Positions 28,841 through 55,651 of a stretch of DNA of 64,000 bases are shown here, piece after piece (the stretch's first letter is position 1; every line of letters starts with the position of its first letter). The DNA comes from a virus. The DNA lies in IMG/VR virus record IMGVR_UViG_3300044613_003770, positions 1 through 64,000 of that record; one strand, written 5' to 3'. The position numbers and the translations under genes were made by a program. The notes below the pieces were generated by a model that saw only the letters and a list, made by a program, of their open reading frames with translations, was not told the DNA's origin and did not search any database.

Positions 28841-29560
28841 TACTAAAAAAACTGAAAAGAGAATCAAATACCTCGAAAAGAAACTTGCTTCATATAAAGA
28901 ACTCTTTGAAGAAAGTAAAGTAATAATTAATAAACAAAGAATGGATGTTATTCGTGAACGAGCTTGGCGAATAAGTTTTCGGAAACTGATGCAGGAGGCA
29001 GTTGAAGATGATGATTTTCAACATCTTTAAAAATATTAATATAACAAAATTATGCCAAACTTTAGAATTGTAAAAGAATATCGCAATAGAAACTCTAAAT
29101 TAAGTAAATATAAATTTTACATTCAAAAAAAATGGCTTTTTGGGTGGAATGATGTTGTTCCTTATGATATTGATTCTGAGTTTTATGGCAGGGGATTGAG
29201 TTGGGATACTTTTGAAGAGGCACTTGAAATTTATCGTGAAATTGAAGAAGTTCTCAAAATCCAAAGAAAAAAAACAGAAGTTGTTTGGCCTTCACCTCGC
29301 CGCGAATTTTAAATTAATTTAATACTAGAATGACTAAAGAAGAATTCCTTTTTCAGCTTTATGAAATTGCCGATTATCCAGAAAATTGGCTTGACAAACC
29401 CAATGTTGTATTCAATAATCAGTACCCGCGAGACATGATGGAAACACCAGATGGTCTTGCTAAACTTAAAGAAATGATTGAATTCCTAAAAAAAGAAACA
29501 TTTTAATTATAAATAGACAAATTTTATTCTTGGGGTAAAGATAATGTGTAAATATTTTTG

Positions 29561-38621: not shown

Positions 38622-39521
38622 ATGTTTGACTCCCTCATTGGTCAAGACCACATTAAAAAACAACTTCAGTTCTATGCCGAGTCCCACAAGGCAACTGGAG
38701 TCAGTCCATTCCTTATGTTCAATGGAGCAAAGGGTTTGGGTAAGACAGAATTCGCAAAGCAGTATGCCAAGCAACTGAAGAAACCATTGCTTGAGATTAA
38801 CTGCTCTACGATTAAGAACAATGCCCAATTCTTTGAGCAGATCTTCATGCCTGTTATCATGGATAACGAATTGACGATTTTGTTTGATGAGGCTCACGCA
38901 TTGCCCAAGGATCTTGTTATGGCATTCCTTACGGTATTCAATGTGGAGAGCGCAAAATCCAAACGCTTTGAATGGCGCGAGAATACATTTGAATTCAACT
39001 TCGAAAAGCAAACTTATATCTTTGCGACTACTGAGTTGGACAAACTATTCCCTCCGTTTAAGGATCGCCTTACTATCATTGACTTCAAACCATATGAAGC
39101 AAATGAGTTGGGTAGTATCCTCAAGGGTCGTTTGGATTGGGTGAACTTCCAAGACAACATCGTAGATGACATTTCCAGGACTCTTCGTGGCAATGCTCGT
39201 AGTGCAGTTAAACGCGCAAAAGAAATTGAGATGTACTGCGAGAGCAGGAACACCAAGAACTTCGGCACAAAACAGTGGAAAGAATTGTGCGATCTAGTTG
39301 GTATCAAGGCTTATGGTCTTACCAATACCGAGATTGAGATTCTTCATACTCTCAAGAGTCGCGGCGACTGCACATTGGGAATGTTGAGTGCGGCAACTGG
39401 TTTGTCAAGGACTGCTATTCAACGAGACGCAGAAACTTATTTGCTTCGTAAAGCCTTGATCAAAATCGAGGGTACAAGAAAGATCACGCCAGAGGGGACA
39501 AAAATACTGGCGAGTGTATGA
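38622..39521 (+). CDS. ruvB: RuvB-like AAA+ ATPase
   Basis: F..LIGQ, GAKGLGKT, LFDEAH, ATT, P..DR, RGNAR.A, C-terminal winged helix E.YLLR..LI. Confidence 0.75.
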   Translation: MFDSLIGQDHIKKQLQFYAESHKATGVSPFLMFNGAKGLGKTEFAKQYAKQLKKPLLEINCSTIKNNAQFFEQIFMPVIMDNELTILFDEAHALPKDLVMAFLTVFNVESAKSKRFEWRENTFEFNFEKQTYIFATTELDKLFPPFKDRLTIIDFKPYEANELGSILKGRLDWVNFQDNIVDDISRTLRGNARSAVKRAKEIEMYCESRNTKNFGTKQWKELCDLVGIKAYGLTNTEIEILHTLKSRGDCTLGMLSAATGLSRTAIQRDAETYLLRKALIKIEGTRKITPEGTKILASV

Positions 39522-40587: not shown

Positions 40588-40811
40588 AACTAATCGTAAC
40601 AGAAGAAGATCTCATCCTTGATACCGAACAAGGAACTTACACAATAAAACGCGCCCATGAAGAAGATGAGTGGCATTCAATTACTGAATTTGTTGATTTA
40701 AATTTTTTCTACGATTCATATGATGATAAATACCATGCCGCAATCTATCTTGTTTTAGAAGGACAAACCCAAACAGATACAGGGTGTGAGATCGAAGTAG
40801 AATTCACATAA
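40584..40811 (+). CDS. acidic hypothetical protein
   Basis: Last + strand gene before the convergence point. Confidence 0.6.
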   Translation: MKLIVTEEDLILDTEQGTYTIKRAHEEDEWHSITEFVDLNFFYDSYDDKYHAAIYLVLEGQTQTDTGCEIEVEFT

Positions 40812-40930
40812 TGTGAAATAATAAACTGCCAAATAATAAAAGGCTAAATAACAAAATAGCAAATAATAAAATAGCAAATAATAAAACGCTTAATAAACCC
40901 GTGGAATTCGACGGGTTAAAGGGGGTCGGA

Positions 40931-40973
40931 ACTTACGTTGCGGCGACCCCTACGGGGTCCAATCGCTGTAAGT
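40931..40973 (-). repeat. 43-bp element copy 1 (inverted)
   Basis: ACTTAC GTTGCGGC GACCCC TAC GGGGTC CAATCGCT GTAAGT. Confidence 0.95.
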
Positions 40974-41001
40974 TTTGGATTCAAGGTCGCAATTTGCGAC
41001 C

Positions 41002-41196
41002 TTATTTGATTTCGTAGCGATCAACAATCTCAAGCGTTTCCGTATCAAGATGGACAACAAAACCCTCTCTCCCTTTTTCAAGTGCGCGTTCTTCCGTCTC
41101 CCTGTCAAGATTTGTTTCTTTCCAGCTTGGAGGCAAACCCTTTGAGTGGACAATGATGCGGGATTGATTAAGGAAGTCTAGTTGGTATGCTCTCAT
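41002..41196 (-). CDS. hypothetical protein
   Basis: 64-aa ORF with A-rich leader. Confidence 0.55.
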   Translation of the reverse strand: MRAYQLDFLNQSRIIVHSKGLPPSWKETNLDRETEERALEKGREGFVVHLDTETLEIVDRYEIK

Positions 41197-41338
41197 ATTT
41201 CTTTTTTTATTTCTTTTTTTATTTCTTTTTTACCATCGCTGCGCACTCGTTTATTCTGAACGCGCTTCCAGTATTTGCGTAAGTGCTTCCACCATTGAAC
41301 GGTTGGAACACTTCCTTTGCTTTTTGCTGAACTACTCA

Positions 41339-41710
41339 TTATTTTTGTGCGAGGATTTGTCTGCCTACGATGACAGCATATTTTGCTTTGTCAATGCTTT
41401 TGTTTGAAACGACTTCGTAGAACTTCCCGATGTCTCGATACGGGTTGTAAGAAACCCACATCCTTGGTTGCAGCTTTGTGCTTTCACCAAGTAAGACAAG
41501 ATCACCCTCAACAAACGCATGGACATTTTTCTTTCTTTCGCGCAGGACTCTTTGACGACCTGCTTCTGATACTTTAAAGGTGACATTCTCAAGAGTGACT
41601 TTGCTGGCGTGAAGCCAAACACGCCAGCCCTTTGGAGTTTTTTCTTGGACGGAGAGTTGTTTTCTGTGGAGGTTAAAGTAAAGCCTAACTTTTTTGTTGG
41701 TAGTTTTCAT
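41339..41710 (-). CDS. conserved phage hypothetical protein
   Basis: YFNLH, FKVSEAGRQRVLRERKKNVHAFV.G, YNPY; promoter TTGACA-N16-TAGACT upstream. Confidence 0.8.
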   Translation of the reverse strand: MKTTNKKVRLYFNLHRKQLSVQEKTPKGWRVWLHASKVTLENVTFKVSEAGRQRVLRERKKNVHAFVEGDLVLLGESTKLQPRMWVSYNPYRDIGKFYEVVSNKSIDKAKYAVIVGRQILAQK

Positions 41711-41843
41711 GGGGATGGAGTTGCCGCTCTTATCGGGCGAGCGGCGAGCCGTCTGTCGATATTCTTTGTACTTTTACTTGAGAGAAGTCTAGCAGGGAGA
41801 GTAGATATGTCAACTATTTTTTATTCTTTTTTTTGAATTAAAA

Positions 41844-41886
41844 ACTTACACTCATCGGACCCCGTAGGGGTCGCCGCGATGTAAGT
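41844..41886 (+). repeat. 43-bp element copy 2
   Basis: ACTTAC ACTCATCG GACCCC GTA GGGGTC GCCGCGAT GTAAGT. Confidence 0.95.
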
Positions 41887-41909
41887 TTCCTCACATGCGG
41901 CAACCTATG

Positions 41910-42113
41910 TCACCAGAGATCGTGTTCGTCAATTAGCTGTTCCGTTCTGTCTACAAACTCTTGAATCAAACCCATAGGAATTTCAAACTTGGTAAGGACA
42001 TAACCATCAAAAACAAGATGCAATGCCACATCGACAATTTTCTTTTCTTCGATTGTTGCATGGACTAGGTAAAGCCCGTATTCAGTTTCGAGAGTAGTTC
42101 GAAAAATTTTCAT
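41910..42113 (-). CDS. hypothetical protein
   Basis: Own promoter TTGACA-N16-TAGCTT; start MKIFRTT. Confidence 0.6.
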   Translation of the reverse strand: MKIFRTTLETEYGLYLVHATIEEKKIVDVALHLVFDGYVLTKFEIPMGLIQEFVDRTEQLIDEHDLW

Positions 42114-42171
42114 CGCTTGCGACAAGCTATCACAAAGAAGACGGCTGTCAAGATTAAAAGAAGTTCGATGT

Positions 42172-42870
42172 TCATGCTGGCTCCAAAACAAAACCCGTTT
42201 CATCTTTTTTGGCAAGACCTTTTTCTTTAAGCCCGACGATTTTTCCCTTGCCATCGAGAAAGCGGAGATCGGTATCGTCTCCGTCTACCACATCAAAGCC
42301 CTTGAAACTTTGCGGCAAAGACTTGCGGAAAACCATTGCGACATTGCCACCGCTTGCAAGAAAAGCCTCGGCAATGTTTCCATTCGATTCAGAGCGAGAA
42401 AAGGTCAGGTGATAGTTTTTCGGCATCTCACCAGCGAGAAAAGCAGTCATGCGGTCGGGACTTTTCGTGTAGTCGTAAAACTGCACACTTGGGAAAGTAG
42501 CGAAAACATTTAGGCCGTTGCGTTTGATTTTCTCCCATGGCAAGTCACTTGTGAGGTTTAAGCGGAAGCAAGGTGTCATGCCTTTTTTTTCGGCAGACTT
42601 CATTGACTTTGCAATTTCTTTCCAAAGGTTGGCGAGGAAAGACTGCTTGTCGGTAAAAAACAAACGAGTCTTTGCGATTCGTGCGCGTTGGACGGAAGAC
42701 ATTGCCCCACGCCCTGCGGTGTTGAGACAAGCGGCGGCGCAACCTTTGCTTGCGTCTTTGCATACATTAAACCCCGAAAGGTTAGCGGGTGCAAGGTGCA
42801 AACCGTAGGTGATAAAACCCTTCTTCTCTCCCTTGCGCGTCTTGGCGTTTCCTGTGTTGAGTAGTGACAT
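42172..42870 (-). CDS. GP88-like phage protein with Cys cluster
   Basis: C..AS.GC...CL..AGRG, RLN.TSD, QFYDYTK, NYHLTFS, DGD.TDLRFLD; leaderless start MSLL. Confidence 0.8.
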   Translation of the reverse strand: MSLLNTGNAKTRKGEKKGFITYGLHLAPANLSGFNVCKDASKGCAAACLNTAGRGAMSSVQRARIAKTRLFFTDKQSFLANLWKEIAKSMKSAEKKGMTPCFRLNLTSDLPWEKIKRNGLNVFATFPSVQFYDYTKSPDRMTAFLAGEMPKNYHLTFSRSESNGNIAEAFLASGGNVAMVFRKSLPQSFKGFDVVDGDDTDLRFLDGKGKIVGLKEKGLAKKDETGFVLEPA

Positions 42871-42979
42871 GGCCAAAGCATAGCATTTGAGGCGAGCATG
42901 GCAAGAGATTTTCTTACAATTTTTTTTCCGATAAATAGTGTTTTTTTCTTGACAAGCCATAAGCCATTCATGCTTAGAA

Positions 42980-43022
42980 ACTTACGCCAATCGGACCCCT
43001 TCGGGGTCGCCGCGATGTAAGT
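42980..43022 (+). repeat. 43-bp element copy 3
   Basis: ACTTAC GCCAATCG GACCCC TTC GGGGTC GCCGCGAT GTAAGT. Confidence 0.95.
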
Positions 43023-43035
43023 TTTTCCTGTAGAC

Positions 43036-43066
43036 AAAAAAACCCCCGCCCTTTCGGGCGAGGGTT
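43036..43066 (-). terminator. intrinsic terminator
   Basis: Minus strand AACCCTCGCCC-GAAA-GGGCGGGGGTT followed by T run. Confidence 0.85.
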
Positions 43067-43080
43067 CGTTTGCTTTACGC

Positions 43081-43875
43081 TTACGCTCCAACGACGACGA
43101 GCGTTTCCATTTCCTCCCCCGCATCAGCGGGATCGATTTCGGCCTCGATGGTCGGGCGATGCCCAGCGATGCGGTCAAAGACCGATTGAGCAGTCATCGT
43201 GCGAAACGGCAACTTGGACAGATCACCGCCCTTGAGGTTTTCGGTGATGGAGTTGTAAAGCGTCCAGAGTGTGCCACCCTTGAACTCGTCATGGCGAGGG
43301 TTGCGAAACTCTTGCACGGCGGCGTAAATGTCACGGGCGGGAAACGCTTTGACATCCACAAGGTCGATCAGCAAGTCAGCGGCACGATCACGGGAAATTT
43401 CGGTTTCCTTGTAAAGCTCGATGCGCTTGCCCATGTCGGCCCAATGCGAGACAACGCGAGCGACTGCATCGGAGAGAACGCGAGGAAGGTCAGCGATGAT
43501 GTTCGTGGTGTGGCGGCGAGCCAACTTGATGTCGGAAGAGAAGCAAAGATTCTCGCAAACCATCATGCGATTCCCCACGCAAATGCTTGCGGCAAAGGAC
43601 TTGTCGTGTGCGTTGCGTAGACCAAGCACGATTTGACGATCAGAACCAGTGATGTCCGCGCCCTTGAGAGCAAACCCGCCAAAGTAGCGTTGACCGCCAC
43701 GGGCGAGCGAATGTTCTTCCAGCGACACTTCAAGCCCTGCGCGTCCGATTGCCTCACGAGTCATTTCGACAAGCGAGAAATGCGGGATGGGTTGGAAGCG
43801 GTCAGCGGCTTCGGGAGTCTCAACGCCCATGAGTTGCTCGGCGTTCACTTTGTTTTTTGCGATGATCAGTGACAT
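43081..43875 (-). CDS. DUF932-family protein
   Basis: PIPH..L, LRNAHDKS, G..MMVCENLCF, RRHT, TLW.LYN..TE. Confidence 0.8.
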   Translation of the reverse strand: MSLIIAKNKVNAEQLMGVETPEAADRFQPIPHFSLVEMTREAIGRAGLEVSLEEHSLARGGQRYFGGFALKGADITGSDRQIVLGLRNAHDKSFAASICVGNRMMVCENLCFSSDIKLARRHTTNIIADLPRVLSDAVARVVSHWADMGKRIELYKETEISRDRAADLLIDLVDVKAFPARDIYAAVQEFRNPRHDEFKGGTLWTLYNSITENLKGGDLSKLPFRTMTAQSVFDRIAGHRPTIEAEIDPADAGEEMETLVVVGA

Positions 43876-44042
43876 ATTGTTTTTTTCTATTGGTTGGAGT
43901 TGGATGCGCCATCAGCGGCGACAAGGACAAGGTAGCAAAACCAGCGAGTTTGTCCACACATTTTTCATTGTTTTTGTGTTTTTGTTTTTTGAGCCAGGTG
44001 TGCTTTTTTGCTTGACATGGCATAAGTGATTGAGGATCAAAA

Positions 44043-44085
44043 ACTTACACCCCCAAGACCCCTTCGGGGTCCGAACCATGTAAGT
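44043..44085. repeat. 43-bp element copy 4 (divergent spacers)
   Basis: ACTTAC ACCCCCAA GACCCC TTC GGGGTC CGAACCAT GTAAGT. Confidence 0.9.
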
Positions 44086-44138
44086 TTTTTAGGCATAAGT
44101 TAGGAAGGGATCGCACTTTGCGACCCCTTCCCGTTATG

Positions 44139-44453
44139 TCAACCCACCCTTGCGAAACTTCTGATTGGATGATCGCCAACTACCTGTGGCACAAAGTCAA
44201 TCGTCGGAGAGTCACCGAATTTGTTTTTGTAAGCTCGGAGAAAGGCTGTCAAGTCGCAATCTTCTTCAAGGTAGAAGTTTGATTTGTCTTGGTAGCTGTA
44301 GTGGCTTAACTTTACGCCAAGAGCTTCGACTTCCCGCTTTGGCACTTCAAGCCATCCATGACCTGCGTCAGTATGGAGCTTGAGGATGAGTGTCTTTTGT
44401 GGTTCGCTTTCGAGGTAGCCAACGCCGCCTCCTTCAAGATGCAATGATTTCAT
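44139..44453 (-). CDS. conserved phage/plasmid hypothetical protein
   Basis: HTDAGHGWL.V...S.YSY.....YLEEDCD. Confidence 0.75.
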   Translation of the reverse strand: MKSLHLEGGGVGYLESEPQKTLILKLHTDAGHGWLEVPKREVEALGVKLSHYSYQDKSNFYLEEDCDLTAFLRAYKNKFGDSPTIDFVPQVVGDHPIRSFARVG

Positions 44454-44588
44454 GTGTGTTAGGTTGAATGAGTTTGATGAGGTAGTCAATTACTTTTTGC
44501 GGCTGCTCATTAAAAAGAGGATGAGAGCCATTCCGATTATCCATGCGATATGCAATGTGTCCATTATGAATGATAAAAACAAGATGTT

Positions 44589-44900
44589 TCATTGTTTGGA
44601 ATGTTTGGTGTGAAAACCCACAAAGTCTTCTGCGAGGTTATTGATTAGTTCTTCTACAAAAGCAAAAGGGCTGGCATCGTCCATCGGGTTCAATTCAAAC
44701 TTGGAGATTGCTTCCCAAACTTCGATTTGTTTTTGGTCTTCTTGTTGATTGTCTACGCTGTATTCATCAGCGAGCAAAGCAAGAGCGAGCCTTTCGGCAC
44801 TCCAATCTTGCGGCCATTTAGAAAGGAAATGACCTGCGGCGATTAGGTATGCTTCGGCGTGAATGGGATTGTTGGTGTCTATGTGAATGTAGTCTTGCAT
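44589..44900 (-). CDS. acidic hypothetical protein
   Basis: 103-aa ORF. Confidence 0.6.
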   Translation of the reverse strand: MQDYIHIDTNNPIHAEAYLIAAGHFLSKWPQDWSAERLALALLADEYSVDNQQEDQKQIEVWEAISKFELNPMDDASPFAFVEELINNLAEDFVGFHTKHSKQ

Positions 44901-44909
44901 GGCTGTAGG

Positions 44910-45116
44910 TTAGTCGTTGGCGTGATGATTGTCAAGAATAAGTTGAAGTTCATCGCGGAGTTCTTCCTCGACTTCACTTTCGCCGCCAGAATATGCTTCC
45001 GCAAGCTCTAATGCTTGTTGGGCAATGTCTTTGAGCTGTTCAATTGTGTTTAGTAGTTCTTCGATTGTGGTCATGTCGATATGTGGGCAACAATTGTGGT
45101 TTGGTTTGTCTGTCAT
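44910..45116 (-). CDS. acidic helical hypothetical protein
   Basis: Likely start MTDKPN after an A/C-rich leader. Confidence 0.5.
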   Translation of the reverse strand: MTDKPNHNCCPHIDMTTIEELLNTIEQLKDIAQQALELAEAYSGGESEVEEELRDELQLILDNHHAND

Positions 45117-45129
45117 GTTGTTTTGTTGG

Positions 45130-45471
45130 TTAGTTTGTTGGGATGAATCTACGGGCGTGAATGTTAAGATTGGAACACCATTTTTTCCAGTTTTTGCCAT
45201 GAAAGTCATTGCGGCCATTTTTCTTGTGTGTGCCAAAGAATTTTGTTCTTTCGGTTATGTCAAGAGCGTGTGCGAGTTCATGCAAGAAAACTTCAGAAAA
45301 CAAATGGAAGTTTTGTAGGATTTGATTTGAAAGCTCAATTCTTTTTTCCTCTATACGATAGCAACCCAATCTTCTTTTTGTGTTTGTCCAAAGGACTGGA
45401 ATGTGGGTCATGTTATGCTGACGCAAGGTCAAGCGGATGTATTGTTCGGCTTCTTGGTGAGTGATTTTCAT
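45130..45471 (-). CDS. SprT-like zinc metalloprotease
   Basis: RRLG.Y...I.LS...LHELAHA...HG..WK. Confidence 0.85.
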   Translation of the reverse strand: MKITHQEAEQYIRLTLRQHNMTHIPVLWTNTKRRLGCYRIEEKRIELSNQILQNFHLFSEVFLHELAHALDITERTKFFGTHKKNGRNDFHGKNWKKWCSNLNIHARRFIPTN

Positions 45472-45515
45472 GCGGGGAAAGTTTGGGGGCTTTCGCCCCC
45501 TATGTCAACTATTTT

Positions 45516-45998
45516 TTAGACATCAGCAGGAATTTCTTCGTCCTCGTCGTATTCGACAAAGCTAAAGTTTTCTTTTGCAAACTCTATGACATCAGCATCA
45601 TCGACTTGGTTGTCGTCAATTTGACCTTCGGAGATGATAGCAGTCCCAGCAAACCAGCAACCGCCCTCAAAGTAGTCGAGCGTAAATTGATCGTTTGGAA
45701 ACATTTCAGACAGAGCGGCAATCGCTTGAAGTGGTGGACTCCAAGCAGTCATGAATGGAGCTTGAAAGTCGCAATCTTCAGAGATGAGTTGATCAGCAAC
45801 TTCGCGTTGCTCTTGTTCACTCAAGTCCCATTTAGTTCCCCAGTTTTCAAGTCTCCAATTATACCATCCATTGCCCTCAAGCAATTCTGGTGGTGTGGGT
45901 TTGATTTTCTCAAAAGAAAGACCATTTTCTTTTAGATAGCTTTCCAATTCTGGAGAGCAATCCATGACCGACAATTTATTTTCGTTCCAGTTAGGCAT
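45516..45998 (-). CDS. DUF1281/YubB-like ferredoxin-fold protein
   Basis: MPNW..N, WYNWR..NWGTKW, F.TAWSPP, YFE.G..FAG. Confidence 0.85.
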   Translation of the reverse strand: MPNWNENKLSVMDCSPELESYLKENGLSFEKIKPTPPELLEGNGWYNWRLENWGTKWDLSEQEQREVADQLISEDCDFQAPFMTAWSPPLQAIAALSEMFPNDQFTLDYFEGGCWFAGTAIISEGQIDDNQVDDADVIEFAKENFSFVEYDEDEEIPADV

Positions 45999-46025
45999 GG
46001 CGGCAATGTAGGTTAGTGGTTGGGG

Positions 46026-46199
46026 TTAGTCAAGATTTTTTATTAGTGTGTGGGAGTATCTCAAGACATCTCCACAATCATCACAAGGTTCTCCGTTGTC
46101 TTGATAAAAGTCAGGAGAGACATGGACTTCTTCATTTGTTTCATCATTGATCCAAACATGAAGAACATTTTCATCGTTTATTTTGATCCAATCAGACAT
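46026..46199 (-). CDS. 57-aa acidic protein with CxxC
   Basis: MSDWIKINDENVLHVW...FYQDNGEPCDDCG; own promoter; not in track. Confidence 0.65.
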   Translation of the reverse strand: MSDWIKINDENVLHVWINDETNEEVHVSPDFYQDNGEPCDDCGDVLRYSHTLIKNLD

Positions 46200-46230
46200 G
46201 GCTTTAGTATGTGTTATTTTTTGGGGTTAG

Positions 46231-46482
46231 TCAATAGGTTTTTGCAAGTAAAACAAGAGGCTTCAATGTGATTGGCTTTTCAGCAACATAAAAGAAAAAA
46301 CCATATTCCAAAACCTCAATGTCGCCATCGACTTCGGCAAGTGAAACATAGTCATCGCCATGATTGTCGGCAACGAATGGGCCTTCATCATCATGCCCGA
46401 TAAAGTAAAGCGTATCGTTTAGATCGACAGCATAAGCGTCACTGAGTGCTTCGTGTAGTTGTTCAAGTGTGGTTGTTTGCAT
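46231..46482 (-). CDS. acidic hypothetical protein
   Basis: TTGACT-N16-CATACT-N6-ATG. Confidence 0.7.
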   Translation of the reverse strand: MQTTTLEQLHEALSDAYAVDLNDTLYFIGHDDEGPFVADNHGDDYVSLAEVDGDIEVLEYGFFFYVAEKPITLKPLVLLAKTY

Positions 46483-46508
46483 GGCAGTAGTATGTGTTAT
46501 TTTCGGGG

Positions 46509-46649
46509 TTAGTCAACAAGAAATCTGCGCTTCCATTGTGATTCTTGCACCTGCTTATCAAGCCAAGATTGTTGTTCAAAGATGCGCGATCCGTAAATTG
46601 ATTTGCGGTCGCGTGTGAATAGTGACAGGATGTGGTTGATGATTTGCAT
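46509..46649 (-). CDS. 46-aa peptide
   Basis: TTGACA-N16-TAAGTT-N6-ATG; MQIINHILSLF...; not in track. Confidence 0.6.
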   Translation of the reverse strand: MQIINHILSLFTRDRKSIYGSRIFEQQSWLDKQVQESQWKRRFLVD

Positions 46650-46814
46650 GGGGGAAACTTAACACAAAGACGCGAGGTGTCAAATTTTATTTTCAGAATA
46701 AACTGCAATTTTCTTCTTGACAAATCAACACTAGCAAATAGCAAAATAGTAAATAGCAAATCAGTTAATAGCTAATAGACTACAGGCGCGGCTGTAAGTC
46801 ATTGAGGATTAAAA

Positions 46815-46857
46815 ACTTACACCAATCGGACCCCGTAGGGGTCGCCGCGATGTAAGT
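46815..46857 (+). repeat. 43-bp element copy 5
   Basis: ACTTAC ACCAATCG GACCCC GTA GGGGTC GCCGCGAT GTAAGT. Confidence 0.95.
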
Positions 46858-46879
46858 TCTTGGCGACCAATGGGTTATG

Positions 46880-47158
46880 TTATTCCTCGTCGCAATCCTC
46901 AATCGTATCCGATTGCGACACTTCGGGATTGAACGGGCAAGCTTCCAAGACTCCCCAGCATTCTTTCCCTTGGAAGGTGAAGGATACACCCCACACAACC
47001 CAATTGTATTGCAACTCATCGACAATCTCGCGAAATTGCAGATCGTCAACCTTGCTTGTTGCTATCCTTTGGGGAATGGCAGTGAGGGCGGCGGCTTCCG
47101 CGAGAGCGGCGGCGTATTCTTCGGGCGAAACTTCGGAGGCGAGGTAGGTGATGGACAT
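46880..47158 (-). CDS. acidic hypothetical protein (N-terminus related to 48553..48690)
   Basis: TTGCGT-N16-TAACTT-N6-ATG. Confidence 0.7.
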   Translation of the reverse strand: MSITYLASEVSPEEYAAALAEAAALTAIPQRIATSKVDDLQFREIVDELQYNWVVWGVSFTFQGKECWGVLEACPFNPEVSQSDTIEDCDEE

Positions 47159-47257
47159 GGGAATAAGTTAATCGATTTTAAGAGAAACGCAACAAAAAAG
47201 TCATTTTTTATTTTTTTTATTTTTACTTGACAAATTGTAACTTATTCATTTTCAAAA

Positions 47258-47300
47258 ACTTACACCTATCGGACCCCGTAGGGGTCGCGGCGGTGTAAGT
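47258..47300 (+). repeat. 43-bp element copy 6
   Basis: ACTTAC ACCTATCG GACCCC GTA GGGGTC GCGGCGGT GTAAGT. Confidence 0.95.
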
Positions 47301-47594
47301 TATTCATTTTCAAGCGGTTATGATCGCGCCCCCACCACAGAGGCGCGATCTTTTATCCACCCACAAAATTATTCTTGCAATGCGTTTTTGAAGCACCCTG
47401 CCCAAGTCAACGCGAGGCAAAGCCAAAAAACAATAAAGTTTAGATCGTGTGGCACAATGTCATACACTCTCACAATCGAAAAAATTGCAATGTGTAAAGA
47501 AGAAAAGAAAAGACAAAGAGCGGCAGATTTCATTTTTTTTTATTTTTAAGGTTGAAAGGTTGGGCCTTTTAGTGTGATGCCCAGCACCGATTTT

Positions 47595-47876
47595 TTATTG
47601 AGCGGCAAAGGTCTTTTCGATTTTCCCGCATTTGAAATGGCGGACGGCTTCGGGTTTGAAGCTGAACCAGCCTTGATTGTTTCGATTGATTGCAGAGAAG
47701 TATCCAGCCGCCTTCAATCCATCAGTTCCAGCAGAGCCAGTTCCTTTGATCAAACCAATGTATTTGTCCTTGGCGTTGATTTGACGAATCGTGCCATCCT
47801 TCTTTTCAAAGGTGATCGAAAAGAATTTTCCTTTCGTGGCGGCGATCAGTTGTGCGATTTCGTTTTGTGTGGTCAT
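47595..47876 (-). CDS. SH3/WYL-like beta-barrel phage protein
   Basis: GKFFSITFEKKDGTIR.IN...W.SF. Confidence 0.7.
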   Translation of the reverse strand: MTTQNEIAQLIAATKGKFFSITFEKKDGTIRQINAKDKYIGLIKGTGSAGTDGLKAAGYFSAINRNNQGWFSFKPEAVRHFKCGKIEKTFAAQ

Positions 47877-47887
47877 GTTTTTGTTGG

Positions 47888-48022
47888 TTATTGTTTTGAG
47901 ATCATTTCCCGTTCCATCTCGTCGATTTCTTCGGGGGTCATGGTATCCTCGATTTCATGCGCGGCATGGAACATGGCGAGCAATTCAAGGGAATCAGCGT
48001 GGGCGAGTTGGTCAATGGACAT
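47888..48022 (-). CDS. 44-aa acidic peptide
   Basis: TTGCTA-N16-TAACTT-N6-ATG; MSIDQLAHADSLELL...; not in track. Confidence 0.65.
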   Translation of the reverse strand: MSIDQLAHADSLELLAMFHAAHEIEDTMTPEEIDEMEREMISKQ

Positions 48023-48063
48023 GAGAGAAAGTTAGTTGATTTTGAAAGAATAGCAAGAAAAAA

Positions 48064-48258
48064 TTAACCGATTTTCAAATTTTCAACTCGGCTAGATGCA
48101 ACGGTATTGACATCGCCGCAGTATGGGTCGCGGTAAATGATGATGAACGCGCCGTCGAGAGTGTCGCGGTCGGTGACGCTTCCCGTCAAATTCATTCCGC
48201 AGTAGGTGAATTCAACAAGGGTATTTAAGCGGGGGCGGGTGGTGGTCGTGTTGGACAT
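48064..48258 (-). CDS. small beta-rich protein, paralogue 1
   Basis: TTGCGT-N16-TAACTT-N6-ATG; paralogue at 49455. Confidence 0.75.
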   Translation of the reverse strand: MSNTTTTRPRLNTLVEFTYCGMNLTGSVTDRDTLDGAFIIIYRDPYCGDVNTVASSRVENLKIG

Positions 48259-48404
48259 GTAAGAAAGTTATCACAACTAACTCGAAACGCAACAAAAAAA
48301 ACAAAAATCTTTTTCGCCCAGTTGCAATTTTTTTCTTGACAAATAGAATGGGGGGGCTATTGGGGGGGCTGAAGGGAAGATTCATAACTCATTGAAAATC
48401 AAAA

Positions 48405-48447
48405 ACTTACACCCATCGGACCCCTTCGGGGTCGCCGCGATGTAAGT
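48405..48447 (+). repeat. 43-bp element copy 7
   Basis: ACTTAC ACCCATCG GACCCC TTC GGGGTC GCCGCGAT GTAAGT. Confidence 0.95.
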
Positions 48448-48552
48448 TTCACGGCAACCCCTCACCACTACATTTGCGCCGATATTATGGCAACCACAAG
48501 CCAAATCGCGGCATTTATTCCAATCAAAATTCCAAGTATTTCTTTCATGTTT

Positions 48553-48690
48553 TTATCCTTCCTTTTCGATGTGTTCAAGATACTCCGCGAACGCGAGTTC
48601 GGCGGCTTCCGCGAGGACGGCATCACGCTCCTCGATGGAAATTTCACTGGCAAAGTAGGTGGCGGCGGCGGTAGTGAGGTCGTTGGACAT
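48553..48690 (-). CDS. 45-aa acidic peptide
   Basis: MSNDLTTAAATYFASEISIEERDAVLAEAAEL...; TTGCGT-N16-TAACTT-N6-ATG; not in track. Confidence 0.7.
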   Translation of the reverse strand: MSNDLTTAAATYFASEISIEERDAVLAEAAELAFAEYLEHIEKEG

Positions 48691-48797
48691 GCAAGAAAGT
48701 TAGCATGGGATTCAGATAACGCAACAAAAAAGTGTTTTTTATTTATTTTTTTTTGTGTGTTTTTTCTTTACTTTTTGCAATTCGTTGAGCGTAAGAA

Positions 48798-48840
48798 ACT
48801 TACAGCTATCGGACCCCGTAGGGGTCGCGGCGGTGTAAGT
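48798..48840 (+). repeat. 43-bp element copy 8
   Basis: ACTTAC AGCTATCG GACCCC GTA GGGGTC GCGGCGGT GTAAGT. Confidence 0.95.
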
Positions 48841-48964
48841 TTTTGATTTCCAATGACTTACAACGGCAGCGGCAATGTAGTTATGCTATGCACTATGTGC
48901 CATACTACTACAAGCGTAGTAGTAAAGCACACAGCGTTTGCAATGATGTCTTGTAGTTCTTCAC

Positions 48965-49192
48965 TCATACAGACAAGTCGCAGTCTTCTTCTAGAAATTC
49001 CATTGCGGCTTCTTGTGCGTAGTCAAGTAGCTCACTCATGGGAGTCATGCTGTCTGCTTCTTCTATCATCTCTTCCAATGTGTCCACGTGATCACATAGA
49101 AGAGCGGTATCAGGTAGATCATCGAGTGACAAGCCTGTGATGGCGTAGACTTGTGCGTTGATCATCTTTCGTGCTTTGTTTCGTGCGCTCAT
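48965..49192 (-). CDS. acidic hypothetical protein
   Basis: GLSLDDLPD motif; A/C-rich leader. Confidence 0.65.
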   Translation of the reverse strand: MSARNKARKMINAQVYAITGLSLDDLPDTALLCDHVDTLEEMIEEADSMTPMSELLDYAQEAAMEFLEEDCDLSV

Positions 49193-49454
49193 GGTGTGTG
49201 TGTTGTTATTGGTTGATTGGTGTAGTGTCTTTCATATTATTATGCTTGTGTGTGTTAGTTATGCTTAACATAGGATTGAAGATGTGCAAGCGCATACATA
49301 GTCGCGCCAAAGGTTAAAAAACATATAGCGTCGAACACTTCGCTTCGTCCTCCGTAGATACAGAAGGCGCAAAGGCTAAAGACAGGCGACATGGTGATGA
49401 TGGCAGAGCCAAGGATTGTGATGATGTGTTTCATTTTTTTTCTATGTGTTATGT

Positions 49455-49649
49455 TTACCAGACTTTGATGATTTCAATTTGATTCGAACCGATAAAAGCG
49501 ATGTCGTTGCAAAGATCGCGATAGATGATGACAAAGCCGCCGTCGAGCGTGTTCCTATCGGTGACGCTACCGCAGAAGCGACGACCTTCATAGCGAAAGT
49601 CTACAGTAGAGTTAATGCGTGGGCGGGTGGTGGTAGTTGTGTTGGACAT
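49455..49649 (-). CDS. small beta-rich protein, paralogue 2
   Basis: TTGTGT-N16-TAACTT-N6-ATG; GSVTDR.TLDG.F.IIYRD shared with 48064. Confidence 0.75.
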   Translation of the reverse strand: MSNTTTTTRPRINSTVDFRYEGRRFCGSVTDRNTLDGGFVIIYRDLCNDIAFIGSNQIEIIKVW

Positions 49650-49763
49650 GGGAGAAAGTTAGCAGATGAGAGAGGGAACACAAGAAAAAAATCATTTATT
49701 TTTTTTTACGAAACTGCAATTTTTTTCTTGACAAATAGATATGCGGGGGGGTTTGGGGGGGCG

Positions 49764-49946
49764 CAAATAGCAAATGAATAAATAGCAAATTATCAAATAG
49801 CAAATAGCAAATGAATAAATAGTAAATAGATTAGCGATTGGGTAATGATTAGCGTGGCGGTAATCATTAGCGTGGCAGTCATGTATTCGCGTGGAATCCT
49901 TAGTGTGGAGGTAATCATTAGCGTGGAACAAATCATTAGCGTGGAA
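49764..49946 (+). repeat. AAATAGC heptamer tract followed by about 6 iteron-like TAATCATTAGCGTGG units
   Basis: Heptamer variants at 49764-49830; mostly 18-bp-period units at 49841-49946. Confidence 0.85.
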
Positions 49947-53663: not shown

Positions 53664-54699
53664 AGAACAACAAGAATTTATCGCAAAAGAAGCAAAGAAT
53701 AATACAAATTTAAATGAATTAACTCAAAAATGCTTTAATAACGATGATTTAGATGGTCGCTCCAAAGAAGGGCGGTTAGTTCGTCAATTTTTAATTGAAA
53801 ATGAAATTAAATTTATTACAAGTCGTCGTCCAAAAAAAGATGAAATTAATTTTTCACAACAACAAAAAGATTTTATTATACAACAAGCGGAAGCTGGCTT
53901 ATCTTCTTTAAAAATAGCTGAAATAATTTTTCCAGATAGAGATGTAAAGCCTTTAAGCAACGAACAAAGGAGTGTTTTAGAAGCAATTAAAGAAATAAAT
54001 CCTGATTTTCTACCATCACAAGATTCTGGGGCATTAAATGATTATATAGCCCCAAAATCACCCCCAAGGATAGTTAAAAAGATTAATGATGCTACTGGGA
54101 TGAATTTAGATGAAGCAAAATTAAATAGACCAATGAAAATTTGTGTCGAAAGATTGGGTATTAATTTAAATAATTCTAGATTCGTTAAAATCGTCAATAA
54201 CTATCTATCAAAAAGCGATCGGGAGTTATTTGAACAAGAATTTATTCGTTTAACATGGGATAAGCCAGATTTAACTGCAGATGAAATTAATTTATATTTA
54301 AATGTCTGCAAGGAAATCATTAATTTGGAAGTAATTAGCTGTCATTTGAATAAATTAAATGAAATGTTTGATATAGCTGATGATCAAAACGAAATGAGCG
54401 TTCGTTTATCAGAGATAATTAAAGCAAAAAGCAGCGAATACCATCAATGCGAAAATCGCATAGAAAATTTAACAAAAAAACTTCAAGGTGATAGAGCTGA
54501 AAGAATGAAAAGCAGACAAAAAGAAAATGCTTCGATTTTATCAATAGTTCAATTATTTCAAGAACAAGATGAAAGACAAAACATGGTTCGTATAGCAGAA
54601 ATGCAAAAAGAATTAGTCAAAGAAGAGGCTAATCGTTTAGAAGGAATGTCTGAATGGAAAGCCAGGGTCTTAGGAATATATCAAGATGATGTCATTTAA
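53650..54699 (+). CDS. helical hypothetical protein (possible terminase small subunit)
   Basis: Two HTH-like repeats plus C-terminal coiled coil, two genes upstream of terL. Confidence 0.5.
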   Translation: MNLTKEQQEFIAKEAKNNTNLNELTQKCFNNDDLDGRSKEGRLVRQFLIENEIKFITSRRPKKDEINFSQQQKDFIIQQAEAGLSSLKIAEIIFPDRDVKPLSNEQRSVLEAIKEINPDFLPSQDSGALNDYIAPKSPPRIVKKINDATGMNLDEAKLNRPMKICVERLGINLNNSRFVKIVNNYLSKSDRELFEQEFIRLTWDKPDLTADEINLYLNVCKEIINLEVISCHLNKLNEMFDIADDQNEMSVRLSEIIKAKSSEYHQCENRIENLTKKLQGDRAERMKSRQKENASILSIVQLFQEQDERQNMVRIAEMQKELVKEEANRLEGMSEWKARVLGIYQDDVI

Positions 54700-55651
54700 A
54701 TGCAAAGAGTGTAATCAGGAATTTCCTGGTTTAAAAAACCTCCATACGCATATCAAAAAACATGATATGTTTCTTGGGGACTATTATGTAAAACATTTTC
54801 AAAGAAAAAATAAATTAACGGGCGAATTATTACCATTTAAAAATTATGATGATTATTTTGAAAAAGATTTCTCTCAACCAAAACAACTTCAAGAATGGTG
54901 TGAAAAAGCATCTTTTATGGATGTTAAAGAATATATTATCGAATTAATGGATAGGAGAATCAAGGCAAAGAATCTTAATTCAGGTTTAAGTTCTCTTGAG
55001 CTTTGGACTGCTGGTTTGCCTGATATTGACATGTATAAAAAATACTTTGGGAGTTATACTGATGCATGTAAAAAATGTTTAATCGAACCAATGTTTAATG
55101 GAAAATTACCCAAAGAGTTTTGGAATGATTATTCAAACATAAAAATTCTAATTGATACTAGAGAACAAAAACCATTATGGTTTAATAAATCAGAGATTTT
55201 AAAATTAGATATAGGAGATTATGCTGTTTCTGGAGATAAATATGATTATACTTATGTAGACCGCAAATCTTTCAATGACTTCTGTGGTACAGTTACATCA
55301 TCTTACAATAGATTTGTTAAAGAGTTGGAGAGGTGCAGGAGTTTAGGCTGTTATTTATTTATTGTTATAGAAGCACCCCTTCATAAGATGGATGAATACA
55401 ACAAAAATAGTTATAAAAAATTCAACCTTAATTATGTTTTTCATAACATGAGGCAGCTACAAAGAGATTACAGCAATTGTTGTCAATTTGTCTTTAGTGG
55501 CTCTAGAGGTTTGAGTGCAGAATTAATACCAAAATTATTGATACTCGGAAAATCCTTATGGAAGACTGATATGCAGTATTTTTGGTCAAAAAGAATAGAA
55601 AAATATGGCTTGGATAACAGGAGTACAAAAGAGGAGAAAAAGATTTCCTAA
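54689..55651 (+). CDS. C2H2 zinc finger + ERCC4/XPF-type nuclease
   Basis: CKEC...H...H; IDTREQ, L..GDY, DRKS..D, E..R, IVIE. Confidence 0.8.
   Translation: MSFKCKECNQEFPGLKNLHTHIKKHDMFLGDYYVKHFQRKNKLTGELLPFKNYDDYFEKDFSQPKQLQEWCEKASFMDVKEYIIELMDRRIKAKNLNSGLSSLELWTAGLPDIDMYKKYFGSYTDACKKCLIEPMFNGKLPKEFWNDYSNIKILIDTREQKPLWFNKSEILKLDIGDYAVSGDKYDYTYVDRKSFNDFCGTVTSSYNRFVKELERCRSLGCYLFIVIEAPLHKMDEYNKNSYKKFNLNYVFHNMRQLQRDYSNCCQFVFSGSRGLSAELIPKLLILGKSLWKTDMQYFWSKRIEKYGLDNRSTKEEKKIS

Follow-up and report, generated by a model that had tools for sequence, protein, structure and literature searches.

The early region of an uncultured lake phage carries a 45-base palindromic signal in eight copies between its small genes, and the question is what this signal marks and whether it acts as folded DNA, as folded RNA or as a duplex binding site. 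The locus is analyzed here in a window of 64,000 nucleotides (positions 1 to 64,000 of IMG/VR record IMGVR_UViG_3300044613_003770) and in related phages.

An invariant core at fixed spacing

The element follows the formula AACTTAC-N8-GACCCC-N3-GGGGTC-N8-GTAAGTT. Its inner part, CTTAC-N8-GACCCC-N3-GGGGTC-N8-GTAAG, has eight exact matches in the window (40932, 41845, 42981, 44044, 46816, 47259, 48406, and 48799) versus 0 in 100 shuffles, which confirms the eight copies and the loops given in the first-pass annotation. A pattern search of the whole 85-kb record returned no further copy. The copies are spaced at cassette-sized intervals of 393-2772 bp, and copy 1 stands in reverse-complement orientation to the rest.

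40930..40974, + strand: copy 1, inverted relative to copies 2-8, at a convergent junction after + strand genes; loop TAC on +
41843..41887, - strand: copy 2, loop GTA on + and TAC on the transcribed - strand
42979..43023, - strand: copy 3, loop TTC on + and GAA on -; a canonical terminator precedes it on the - strand
44042..44086, - strand: copy 4, loop TTC on +; spacers unlike the others, not fitting the bulged fold
46814..46858, - strand: copy 5, loop GTA on +; homology to the relative L019 stops exactly at 46858
47257..47301, - strand: copy 6, loop GTA on +; homology to the relatives L019 and L022 restarts at 47251
48404..48448, - strand: copy 7, pattern match, loop TTC on +
48797..48841, - strand: copy 8, pattern match, loop GTA on +

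With these loops, C-G(A/T)A-G always stands on one of the two strands. The wider sample comprises 66 distinct copies from four related phage lineages and seven from one mis-binned contig, and the 15-base core is invariant across all of them. The loop is GAA, GTA, TTC, or TAC in 67 of 67 distinct copies, with no intermediates and an unvarying stem; the earlier claim of a GNA triloop on one strand thus holds in the larger alignment, where loops are not arbitrary. At the duplex level, only two variants exist, GAA/TTC and GTA/TAC. With the asymmetric spacers aligned one way, all four loop states are found, so the constraint applies to the duplex core whichever way it sits. The positions on either side of the dyad are always G and A and never a symmetric pair, and the 8-nt distance between core and arm never varies in the four lineages. 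Mosaic copies occur in which the left spacer comes from one type and the loop and right spacer from another.

A self-contained duplex module that exists in two variants and sits either way round between asymmetric flanks (n = 67) would suit a role as DNA-level structure. In supercoiled DNA or during replication, the core would extrude and form a cruciform or hairpin with an extra-stable d(C-GNA-G) triloop cap, helped by protein-induced bends at the flanking palindromes. Junction enzymes would recognize or cut it, which would create hot spots of recombination or else a boundary, topological or insulating. Either orientation without intermediates is expected if a GNA loop on either strand suffices. 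Folds calculated with DNA parameters exceed shuffles in stability (z -2.5 to -4), the spacing is rigid although the spacers are unpaired, and the mosaic copies also fit. However, the 6-bp stem is very short for extrusion. Other lineages hold quite different GC hairpins between the same palindromes, and since these have loops CCCC, GCC, or GA, or cores that fold poorly, the GNA loop is no requirement of the class. Overall, extrusion is an unlikely, though not negligible, explanation.

Flanking palindromes and the apparent outer stem

The arms of the element belong to P, a 25-bp palindrome (TAAGT-NN-TTGA-NNN-TCAA-NN-ACTTA) that reads like an integration host factor (IHF) site. The segment between two palindromes is 33 nt long, built as N8, the invariant 15-base hairpin, and N8. 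In the window, one of the two palindromes is often decayed, and P-like sites with at most four mismatches are found only beside elements.

42960..42984: P, 4 mismatches, gives the arm of copy 3
44023..44047: P, exact match, gives the arm of copy 4
46795..46819: P, 1 mismatch, gives one arm of copy 5
46853..46877: degenerate P, 4 mismatches, opposite side of copy 5
47238..47262: P, 2 mismatches, gives one arm of copy 6
47296..47320: P, 3 mismatches, opposite side of copy 6
48385..48409: P, 1 mismatch, one arm of copy 7; exact WATCAANNNNTTR at 48397-48409
48778..48802: degenerate P, 4 mismatches, gives one arm of copy 8
48836..48860: P, 1 mismatch, opposite side of copy 8; exact WATCAANNNNTTR on the - strand at 48836-48848

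The facing halves of P supply the apparent outer stem, in which there are no compensatory changes; arm pair 3-43 is mismatched in 16 of 54 copies and compensated in none. The NN positions of P are complementary no more often than by chance (52 and 51 observed versus 58.8 and 53.0 expected), and the half-sites vary independently of each other. Judged by sequence, the outer stem is thus best taken as the facing halves of two adjacent palindromic sites and not as the product of selection for pairing. P is present in more than 119 uncultured viral contigs. The full WATCAANNNNTTR is matched in 76 of 99 distinct P sites versus 47% expected from composition, and the IHF consensus is enriched in P sites by sequence match. 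P therefore fits the IHF consensus as a putative protein site.

Conserved rather than covarying sequence, with an invariant core, uncompensated arm changes, and fixed spacing, would also suit an operator array, as would the independent half-sites, the wide occurrence of P, and the IHF enrichment. Here the 45-85 bp unit of core and palindromes would be a duplex platform for a phage or host regulator, neither strand being folded, which controls or silences the early cassettes or organizes the DNA. The constant G and A flanking the dyad would be unexpected under binding by a symmetric dimer and are usual in hairpin loops. Furthermore, the cores of other lineages are wholly different in sequence, yet GC-rich and mostly hairpin-forming, and in the distant lineage L050 the stem is extended to 7 bp by a paired C/G insertion. 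The phage records searched held no HU/IHF gene, and neither a P-binding protein nor a candidate regulator was found. An operator array is likewise improbable, to about the same degree as extrusion.

In enterobacteria, REP/BIME elements are multi-copy, GC-rich intergenic palindromes at gene 3' ends, implicated in mRNA-end stabilization, attenuation, and rearrangements; in the BIME-1/RIP type, an IHF site lies between two REPs. The phage element shares the combination of a GC-rich intergenic palindrome with an IHF-consensus motif. It differs in that its hairpin lies between two IHF-like palindromes and in a phage instead of a chromosome.

The spacers are not selected for pairing

The first-pass annotation proposed that the N8 spacers pair with staggered 4-nt bulges, one compensatory change supporting the fold. 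The complementary ATCG/CGAT segments do exist in copies 2, 3, 5, and 7, copies 6 and 8 have ATCG/CGGT, and copy 4 does not fit; as a selected pairing, they are not confirmed beyond shared descent. The change in copy 1 (GTTG/CAAT on the + strand, ATTG/CAAC on the strand read at first) gains no support as a compensatory one; the latter strand also shows an A.C mismatch that had gone unmentioned. Across relatives (54 distinct 45-mers), pairing at the four staggered positions occurs in 50.9% of cells, which is not above the shuffles, and covariation shows no excess either (47 of 500 shuffles reach the observed score). The staggered fold is missing from three lineages, and three of its four pairs are hardly ever formed in lineages B and C. 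Permuting the base order inside both spacers leaves the folding energy the same (mean z +0.4 to -0.5). With DNA parameters, ViennaRNA forms three staggered-stem pairs on the + strand of copies 5 (-12.6 kcal/mol) and 7 (-12.5 kcal/mol); with RNA parameters, the staggered stem is not predicted. The N8 spacers therefore lack selected pairing.

The bulges had also been likened to the extrahelical bases by which a recombinase reads a folded attC site in an integron-type cassette system. Imperfect palindromes at cassette joints, cassette-sized spacing, and the replacement of cassettes between neighboring sites (see below) are shared with attC. However, conserved bulges and a GTTRRRY core are absent, every cassette bears its own promoter, and the core is invariant in sequence, whereas attC conserves structure rather than sequence. 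Phage_integrase and Resolvase had no match in the window's record, nor did Phage_integrase in two complete relatives. An attC-like site is very unlikely, and the analogy is not supported.

Each cassette carries its own promoter

Every copy lies between genes: a stop codon precedes it by 19-123 nt, and a promoter follows at 100-180 nt. Orientation tracks transcription, and this holds for the inverted copy at a convergent junction both in the window and in the relative G002. On the - strand of the array, ten units of the form -35/N16-17/-10/N6/ATG are present; the downstream genes are leaderless and start from a sigma-70-type promoter 6 nt from the ATG. Lineage B has TTGACA-N17-TAnnnT units.

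42868..42904, - strand: TTGCCA-N16-TATGCT-N6-ATG, GP88-family gene downstream of copy 3
45996..46033, - strand: TTGACT-N17-TACATT-N6-ATG, Api92-like gene
46197..46234, - strand: TTGACT-N17-CATACT-N6-ATG, cassette start without a hairpin element
46480..46516, - strand: TTGACT-N16-CATACT-N6-ATG, cassette start without a hairpin element
47156..47192, - strand: TTGCGT-N16-TAACTT-N6-ATG, leaderless start of a 92-aa gene downstream of copy 6
48256..48292, - strand: TTGCGT-N16-TAACTT-N6-ATG, downstream of copy 7
48688..48724, - strand: TTGCGT-N16-TAACTT-N6-ATG, downstream of copy 8

These promoters bear on a further reading, that the element is a single-stranded hairpin promoter for a virion RNA polymerase of the N4 type. 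In N4 promoter hairpins and the d(GCGAAGC) mini-hairpin, a C-G pair closes a short stem capped by a G-N-A triloop, and the 6-bp stem and 3-nt loop of the element match this. The array also lies in an early region, beside the genome end in G002. Unlike in N4, the loop stands on either strand relative to the downstream gene, and host-type promoters with their own -10 boxes are present 100-180 nt away from the hairpin. T7/N4-like RNA polymerases had no match in a search run without a positive control. Of all the explanations weighed, an N4-type promoter is the least probable.

The hairpin as a possible terminator or attenuator

On the sense strand, the stem is followed by a run of at least four T in 21 of 28 copies of lineage A and 27 of 29 of lineage B (antisense: 12 of 28 and 0 of 29). 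Lineage C has the T-run in 2 of 9 copies only, and in lineage D T5-T6 follows the hairpin. The sense RNA is more stable than the antisense RNA in 27 of 29 copies (B), 7 of 7 (D), 6 of 9 (C), and 16 of 28 (A), an advantage that is compositional, since it is kept after shuffling the spacer order. A terminator scan of the window called none of the eight copies. Copies 1 and 3 adjoin canonical terminators, and copies 4 and 6 come after separate GC hairpins.

40983..41003, + strand: canonical terminator-like hairpin just downstream of copy 1
43040..43067, - strand: intrinsic terminator of canonical form, with a 12-bp stem and a T7 run, lying between copy 3 and the DUF932 gene

With the latter terminator at hand, the element is not needed for termination at copy 3. 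The invariant stem, the G-W-A loop, and the unvarying 8-nt spacing in four lineages go beyond the needs of a plain terminator. As the loop is found in both orientations on the transcribed strand, the RNA loop is now GNA, now UNC, which a constraint at the RNA level does not explain. On the earlier preference for DNA over RNA folding, the evidence points both ways: a core constraint indifferent to orientation fits a DNA-level reading (cruciform or protein on duplex) and is not obviously predicted by an RNA reading, whereas the transcribed strand has U-runs and additional G.U pairs, which are strand-specific and speak against DNA-level structure.

Cassettes are replaced between elements

Relatives exchange cassettes exactly between neighboring elements. 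Between the window and L019, homology stops at 46858 and restarts at 47251, with 392 nt giving way to 934 nt of unrelated DNA; the element at L019:2202-2323 has no counterpart at 45477-45507. A RuvB-like ATPase gene lies 1.4 kb from the array, and the window also holds an ERCC4-type nuclease gene. Breakpoints at elements and these two genes would suit extruded DNA acted on by junction enzymes, but homologous recombination between repeats suffices, and one population variant joins two repeated promoter segments (47198 to 48071), not two hairpins.

The closest known arrangement is found in T4-type phages. Their PeSL (promoter-early stem-loop) cassettes join a GC stem-loop, for which termination of transcription has been shown, to an AT-rich stretch and an early promoter of the sigma-70 class, and indels are flanked by them; protein binding to the conserved stem-loop has been speculated upon (Arbiol et al. 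2010, PMC2839356; Comeau et al. 2014, PMC4122927). In the lake phage, too, small accessory genes form a hyperplastic region in which an intergenic unit recurs. The unit has a GC stem-loop of the GGGG/CCCC type together with AT-rich sequence and a sigma-70-type promoter, and indels or replacements between close relatives are located at its copies. In contrast to published PeSLs, whose stem-loop is adjacent to the promoter, its stem-loop is 100-180 nt away and flanked by 25-bp palindromes at a constant distance of 8 bp, the 15-base core is invariant across lineages, the genes are leaderless, and termination is putative. The large terminase is ~27% identical to those of Clostridium and Bacillus phages, and by this sequence evidence the phage is not demonstrably T4-type.

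A cultured T4-type phage, Stenotrophomonas phage DLP6, carries the half-site TCAACGACTTAG 16 times forward and 0 times in reverse, arranged in tandem pairs with a GC stem-loop and a TTTAC-N17-TATAAT promoter immediately downstream; the repeated motif has been described as a "phage promoter" motif (PMC5349666). The same 11-mer, TCAACGACTTA, heads gene clusters near GC stem-loops and early-type promoters in both phages. Unlike P, the DLP6 motif is a direct tandem pair on one strand without a palindrome, and its stem-loops are ordinary variable terminators abutting the -35 box.

A proposed portable boundary module

The preferred reading, given roughly an even chance, takes the element for a variant of the PeSLs, the terminator/promoter linker cassettes known from T4-type phages. 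On this reading, it is the module that marks boundaries in a PeSL-like system of cassettes, which occupies the early, hyperplastic part of the genome of a large freshwater phage not yet in culture. That such a module terminates or attenuates transcription, that a protein binds P, and how recombination proceeds are what we infer. The central GC hairpin, GACCCC-G(A/T)A-GGGGTC, would most likely be an attenuator or 3'-end hairpin on the transcribed strand and would insulate the independently promoted cassettes from each other. A protein that is dimeric or bends DNA may bind, in duplex form, the one or two P that flank the core at the fixed 8-bp distance. The complete unit recurs at each joint and would thereby provide portable homology, at which related phages may exchange, gain, and lose cassettes.

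The element and its invariant core

The 45-base element AACTTAC-N8-GACCCC-N3-GGGGTC-N8-GTAAGTT is present in eight copies between 40930 and 48841. The eight copies and the loops assigned to them in the first-pass annotation are confirmed, as the exact pattern CTTAC-N8-GACCCC-N3-GGGGTC-N8-GTAAG occurs eight times and in none of 100 shuffles. Copy 1 is the reverse complement of copies 2–8, and no further copy is found elsewhere in the 85-kb record. A half-element pattern search of IMG/VR yields 18 stretches in ten contigs. Two related genomes that are complete with terminal repeats harbor ten copies in one 10-kb array (G001, 134 kb) and nine copies, eight of which lie in the first 9 kb (G002, 147 kb). 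A scan of species genomes finds the element on two contigs of metagenome-assembled genomes (MAGs) only. The first is a phage-like 139-kb contig binned as ‘Candidatus Saccharibacteria’ (L033, CAZDRR010000001.1) that carries seven copies with the same core, palindromes, and T-runs and is probably a phage genome binned by mistake. The second holds the core alone with a GCT loop and unrelated flanks, which is probably a chance match.

After removal of duplicates, the copy set comprises 66 distinct copies in the related phage lineages A (window-like), B, and C, with lineage D additional. The 15-base core GACCCC-NNN-GGGGTC is identical in all 67 distinct copies, and no core variant was found with two substitutions allowed. 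The 54 distinct 45-mers align without gaps, the distance between core and right arm is exactly 8 nt in every one of them, and the arm positions T40, A41, A42, and T44 are invariant. A different left arm is found in lineages C and D, where heptamers of the GGGT(T/C)GC type take its place (L028, at 4291, 5258, and 7997, and most L033 copies). These heptamers complement GCGACCC, which forms the 5′ half of the core hairpin, so that an alternative, anti-terminator-like hairpin is possible on the sense strand.

The loop takes four states among the 67 copies (GAA 17, GTA 18, TTC 20, TAC 12) and no others. The earlier observation that one strand always reads C-GNA-G is thereby confirmed and extended to 67/67 copies with an invariant stem. 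When the copies are placed in one common orientation by their asymmetric spacers and the gene direction, lineages A and B show all four states and lineage C shows three. The reverse complement of GACCCCGAAGGGGTC is GACCCCTTCGGGGTC, and the duplex core therefore has two variants only (A or T at the dyad), which are seated either way round. On one strand, the dyad is always flanked by G and A and never by a symmetric pair, while the adjoining spacers vary widely. What is constrained is the duplex module and not a single strand, and the central triplet must have been inverted at least once. Mosaic copies, in which the left spacer of one type is joined to the loop and right spacer of another, show recombination within the core. 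Both the hairpin and its G-N-A loop hold up as real and conserved, and they are of greater interest than a generic terminator would be.

Structural support for pairing of the core comes only from outside these lineages: the distant L050 has a 7-bp stem through a paired C/G insertion, and in other lineages unrelated GC hairpins take the same place. A cruciform-based reading, in which the core acts as extruded DNA, is in line with a duplex module that offers a GNA loop on either strand; it is considered unlikely.

Folding of the spacers

The first-pass annotation further proposed a bulged fold, in which the N8 spacers pair as ATCG/CGAT beside staggered 4-nt bulges, together with a compensatory change in copy 1 and an analogy to the extrahelical bases of integron attC sites. 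None of the three holds. The complementarity as such is present in copies 2, 3, 5, and 7, with a G-T pair in copies 6 and 8, and copy 4 shows none of this pairing, as had been noted. Using DNA parameters, the + strand of copies 5 and 7 forms three staggered-stem pairs (−12.6 and −12.5 kcal/mol, z about −2.5 and −3.1), and using RNA parameters, the spacers of the + strand remain open. Across the 54 distinct copies, 50.9% of the cells of the staggered 4-bp stem are paired, and the observed covariation score is reached by 47 of 500 shuffles. Three of the four staggered pairs are formed in only 0/22, 3/22, and 2/22 copies of lineage B, and lineage C is no better. The folding energy does not change on either strand when the base order inside both spacers is permuted, with a sense-strand mean z after permutation of +0.23 (A), −0.54 (B), −0.24 (C), and −0.41 (D).

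Copy 1 does carry one double change, which is accompanied by one mismatch or wobble. As the staggered pairing is no better than in shuffles, and is absent in lineages B and C, and as the folding energy is insensitive to spacer order, this change is not evidence for the fold. By the same results, attC-style extrahelical bases are not a conserved feature. A symmetric, unstaggered pairing of the N8 spacers was also discarded (49% of cells, which neither exceeds shuffles nor improves on permuted spacers).

The flanking palindromes and the outer stem

In each arm, the element contains the inward-facing half of a 25-bp palindrome, P (TAAGT-NN-TTGA-NNN-TCAA-NN-ACTTA). The window contains nine P-like sites (≤4 mismatches), which are located only beside elements and one of which is exact (44023–44047), and lineage B carries a full P on both flanks. 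P by itself occurs in more than 119 viral contigs, and the usual layout among the listed matches is two P around a very GC-rich stretch of 16–17, 23–25, or 33 nt, with 33 nt corresponding to this element. A blastn search of a twin-palindrome unit against 50,697 cultured phage records gave no match.

Two adjacent palindromes necessarily face each other as inverted repeats, which explains both the apparent outer stem and its uncompensated changes; the outer-arm pair 3–43 has a mismatch in 16 of the 54 copies, none of them compensated. In the outer arms, G.U outnumbers A.C by about 15 to 10 cells, a strand asymmetry that is not informative. The free NN positions of P are complementary in 52/146 and 51/146 sites, compared to 58.8 and 53.0 expected if independent. 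Since this is not above chance, P was rejected as a hairpin; its two half-sites are conserved independently of each other, as is characteristic of a duplex protein site.

At least one full match to WATCAANNNNTTR, which we take to be the IHF consensus, is present in 76 of 99 distinct P versus 47% expected from the composition of the central triplet, and P may be bound by IHF. In the window, the exact match is found at copies 7 and 8 only. No HU/IHF homologue (PF00216) is encoded in the window's record or in four relatives, which would make a host protein the candidate binder of P. An operator-type reading, in which the element serves as a duplex DNA site, is in line with these half-sites; it is likewise considered unlikely.

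Genomic setting of the array

The record originates from freshwater lakes, recurs in lake metagenomes from 2016 to 2024, and is 85 kb long and 68% complete. It encodes rIIA, rIIB, a clamp-loader-like or RuvB-like ATPase, PhoH, a sigma-like protein, a large terminase, and a portal-like protein. Of the genes that bear on a T4-type assignment, rIIA, rIIB, the clamp-loader-like gene, and PhoH are present, and the large terminase shares only ~27% identity with cultured phages, the closest of which are non-T4. At about 38–52 kb, the G+C content rises from 30–36% to 40–50%, and the genes turn to the − strand and become small. This region contains L5 gp82, GP88, DUF932, SprT-like, and Api92-like genes together with many ORFans. 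All eight copies are confined to 40.9–48.9 kb amid genes of 44–264 aa. Two candidate junction-processing enzymes are encoded nearby:

38622–39521, 1.4 kb from the array: RuvB-like AAA+ ATPase (RuvB_N and RuvB_C domains)
54686–55651, downstream: ERCC4 nuclease domain protein with a weak, sub-threshold zinc-finger match

Several other repeats and features surround the array. AAATAGCAAAT-like repeat tracts with a period of 7–8 or 15 nt are located at 40801–40900, 46717–46782, and 49761–49848, that is, at both array ends and upstream of copy 5. Five iteron-like 18-nt repeats of the GGTAATCATTAGCGTGG type follow at 49823–49944, just past the last element. Paired runs of 6–7 G (e.g., G7-CTATT-G7) lie at 48349–48368 and 49744–49761, between a TTGACA-containing motif and the element or repeat tract. 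A 1359-aa ORF (29558–33637) with a weak glucosyltransferase match only occupies the most AT-rich part of the window (25% G+C).

Promoters, T-runs, and terminators

On the transcribed strand, the order is stop codon, element, P, a TTGTCAAG motif with an A-run, an A-rich tract, and the promoter. The TTGTCAAG motif with its A-run lies between element and promoter at the following positions of the transcribed strand:

42949–42956: TTGTCAAG and A-run
44011–44018: TTGTCAAG and A-run
46716–46723: TTGTCAAG and A-run
47227–47234: TTGTCAAG and A-run
48335–48342: TTGTCAAG and A-run

The motif is conserved in L012 and many other class members as well, and in L053, L060, and L083 it is found inside the loop of a GC hairpin just ahead of P.

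Ten −35/N16–17/−10/N6/ATG units are present on the − strand at 42868–49683. With this spacing, transcription would start at or next to the start codon and the genes would be effectively leaderless. Lineage B carries TTGACA-N17-TAnnnT promoter units with A-rich tracts ahead. Bacteroidetes-type promoters were rejected in view of the sigma-70-type units, and the + strand TTGACA boxes were dismissed as antisense promoters for want of a usable −10 box at 16–18 nt.

The stem-loop is oriented with transcription at 100–180 nt from the promoter. Copy 1 sits at a convergent junction in sense orientation for the + strand genes, an arrangement that is also found in G002. A run of at least four T follows a stem in the sense direction in 21/28 copies of lineage A and 27/29 of lineage B, versus 12/28 and 0/29 in the antisense direction. 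Lineage C shows such a run in 2/9 copies, and in lineage D most copies have T5–T6 straight after the hairpin. The sense RNA is more stable than the antisense RNA in 27/29 (B), 7/7 (D), 6/9 (C), and 16/28 (A) copies, which is a composition effect, as it is unchanged by permutation of the spacer order. A consensus terminator scan called none of the eight window copies and called canonical terminators beside copies 1 and 3. An Rfam scan of 40.5–50.5 kb (E≤1) returned two chance-level matches and none at the elements. The RNA libraries (one freshwater metatranscriptome, one wastewater) contain ~6% of words, only in contigs at 85–95% identity, and are uninformative on transcript ends and strands. 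Breaks of DNA contigs at the repeated core are an effect of assembly.

Comparison with known systems

To our knowledge, no linker system has been described other than the promoter-early stem-loop cassettes (PeSLs) of a few cultured T4-type phages. In these small intergenic units, a GC stem-loop for which terminator activity has been demonstrated is combined with an AT-rich tract and a sigma-70 early promoter. The units cluster in hyperplastic regions, border indels, and give rise to mini-circles, and protein binding by the conserved GGGG/CCCC stem-loop was put forward by their authors as a possibility (PMC2839356, PMC4122927). The window resembles them in the confinement of the copies to a region of small genes, which corresponds to a hyperplastic region, and in the sigma-70-type promoter with its AT-rich upstream tract that accompanies each small gene or gene pair.

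A second comparable system is found in the cultured T4-type Stenotrophomonas phage DLP6 (KU682439.2, L149–L160), in which the 12-mer half-site TCAACGACTTAG occurs 16 times on the forward strand and not once on the reverse strand. Most of these half-sites are arranged in tandem pairs with 25 nt between partners, and a GC stem-loop and a TTTAC-N17-TATAAT promoter follow directly downstream; a full P is absent from DLP6 at ≤1 mismatch. The stem-loops were listed by the authors as terminators, and a repeated motif detected with PHIRE, mostly in pairs, was reported as a phage promoter (PMC5349666). We infer that the PHIRE motif is the TCAACGACTTAG motif. In DLP6, a cultured phage appears to carry a previously undescribed PeSL-type unit with IHF-consensus sites. 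A literature search for the exact core or palindrome strings led to the DLP6 terminator table only. Judged by sequence, the element is a variant of the PeSL/DLP6 kind of unit, from which it differs in its twin palindromes at a fixed distance, its frozen core, and its leaderless genes. A PeSL-like boundary module with a putative attenuator hairpin has about an even chance of being the correct description.

Mechanisms like those of attC sites or N4-type hairpin promoters are given little weight. In integrons, attC structure is kept while its sequence varies, and the cassettes are promoterless; here, the core is invariant in 67/67 copies, the cassettes have their own promoters, extrahelical bases are not conserved, and no IntI-type recombinase is found in G000–G004 (the window's record and four relatives). 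Like the N4-type hairpin promoters, the element has a 6-bp stem (within 5–7 bp) and a 3-nt G-W-A loop. Unlike them, with their fixed template-strand loop, it presents all four loop states in the same direction to the gene in lineages A and B. The T7-type RNA polymerase profile PF00940 has no match in the window's record, but the control also matched nowhere and the record is 68% complete.

Exchange of cassettes

The homology of the related contig L019 to the window (97.7%) stops at 46858, where copy 5 has its last base, and sets in again at 47251, six bases ahead of copy 6. The 392 nt between these two points are replaced in L019 by 934 nt of unrelated DNA, and an L022 match likewise begins at 47251. 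L019 additionally has an element-bearing segment of 122 nt in place of 31 nt in the window (45477–45507). The replacement between copies 5 and 6, which is bounded by elements, and this presence or absence of an element resemble PeSL-flanked indels. In a variant contig from another lake, 47198 is joined to 48071 with 20 other letters between, which deletes about 870 bp between two diverged promoter and gene-start segments. Cassettes are thus also lost by recombination between promoters rather than hairpins. Tyrosine recombinases (Phage_integrase, PF00589) have no match in G000, in the complete genomes G001 and G002, or in G003 and G004, with the control positive in 14/14 genomes, and serine recombinases (Resolvase) have none in the window's record.

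Implications for lytic lake phages

A bolder proposal assigns the exchange to the element itself. The core, rigidly spaced by 8 bp from a bend-inducing palindrome on either side, would be a structure-dependent joint at DNA level; bending at both flanks would extrude a GNA-capped mini-cruciform, which the RuvB-like ATPase and the ERCC4-type nuclease would process. This is quite improbable. If true, lytic freshwater phages would possess an integrase-free, integron-like way to capture and reshuffle promoter-bearing cassettes.

The turnover of accessory genes in large lytic phages, which probably serve host takeover or anti-defence, is poorly understood. Uncultured lake phages commonly carry a linker that is related to the PeSLs and more elaborate, with twin IHF-like palindromes and a GC hairpin. 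One lineage has this hairpin fixed as a single 15-base sequence, with a G-N-A loop on one strand in every copy, and this frozen core offers a clean experimental handle to distinguish between action as RNA, as extruded DNA, and as a duplex site.
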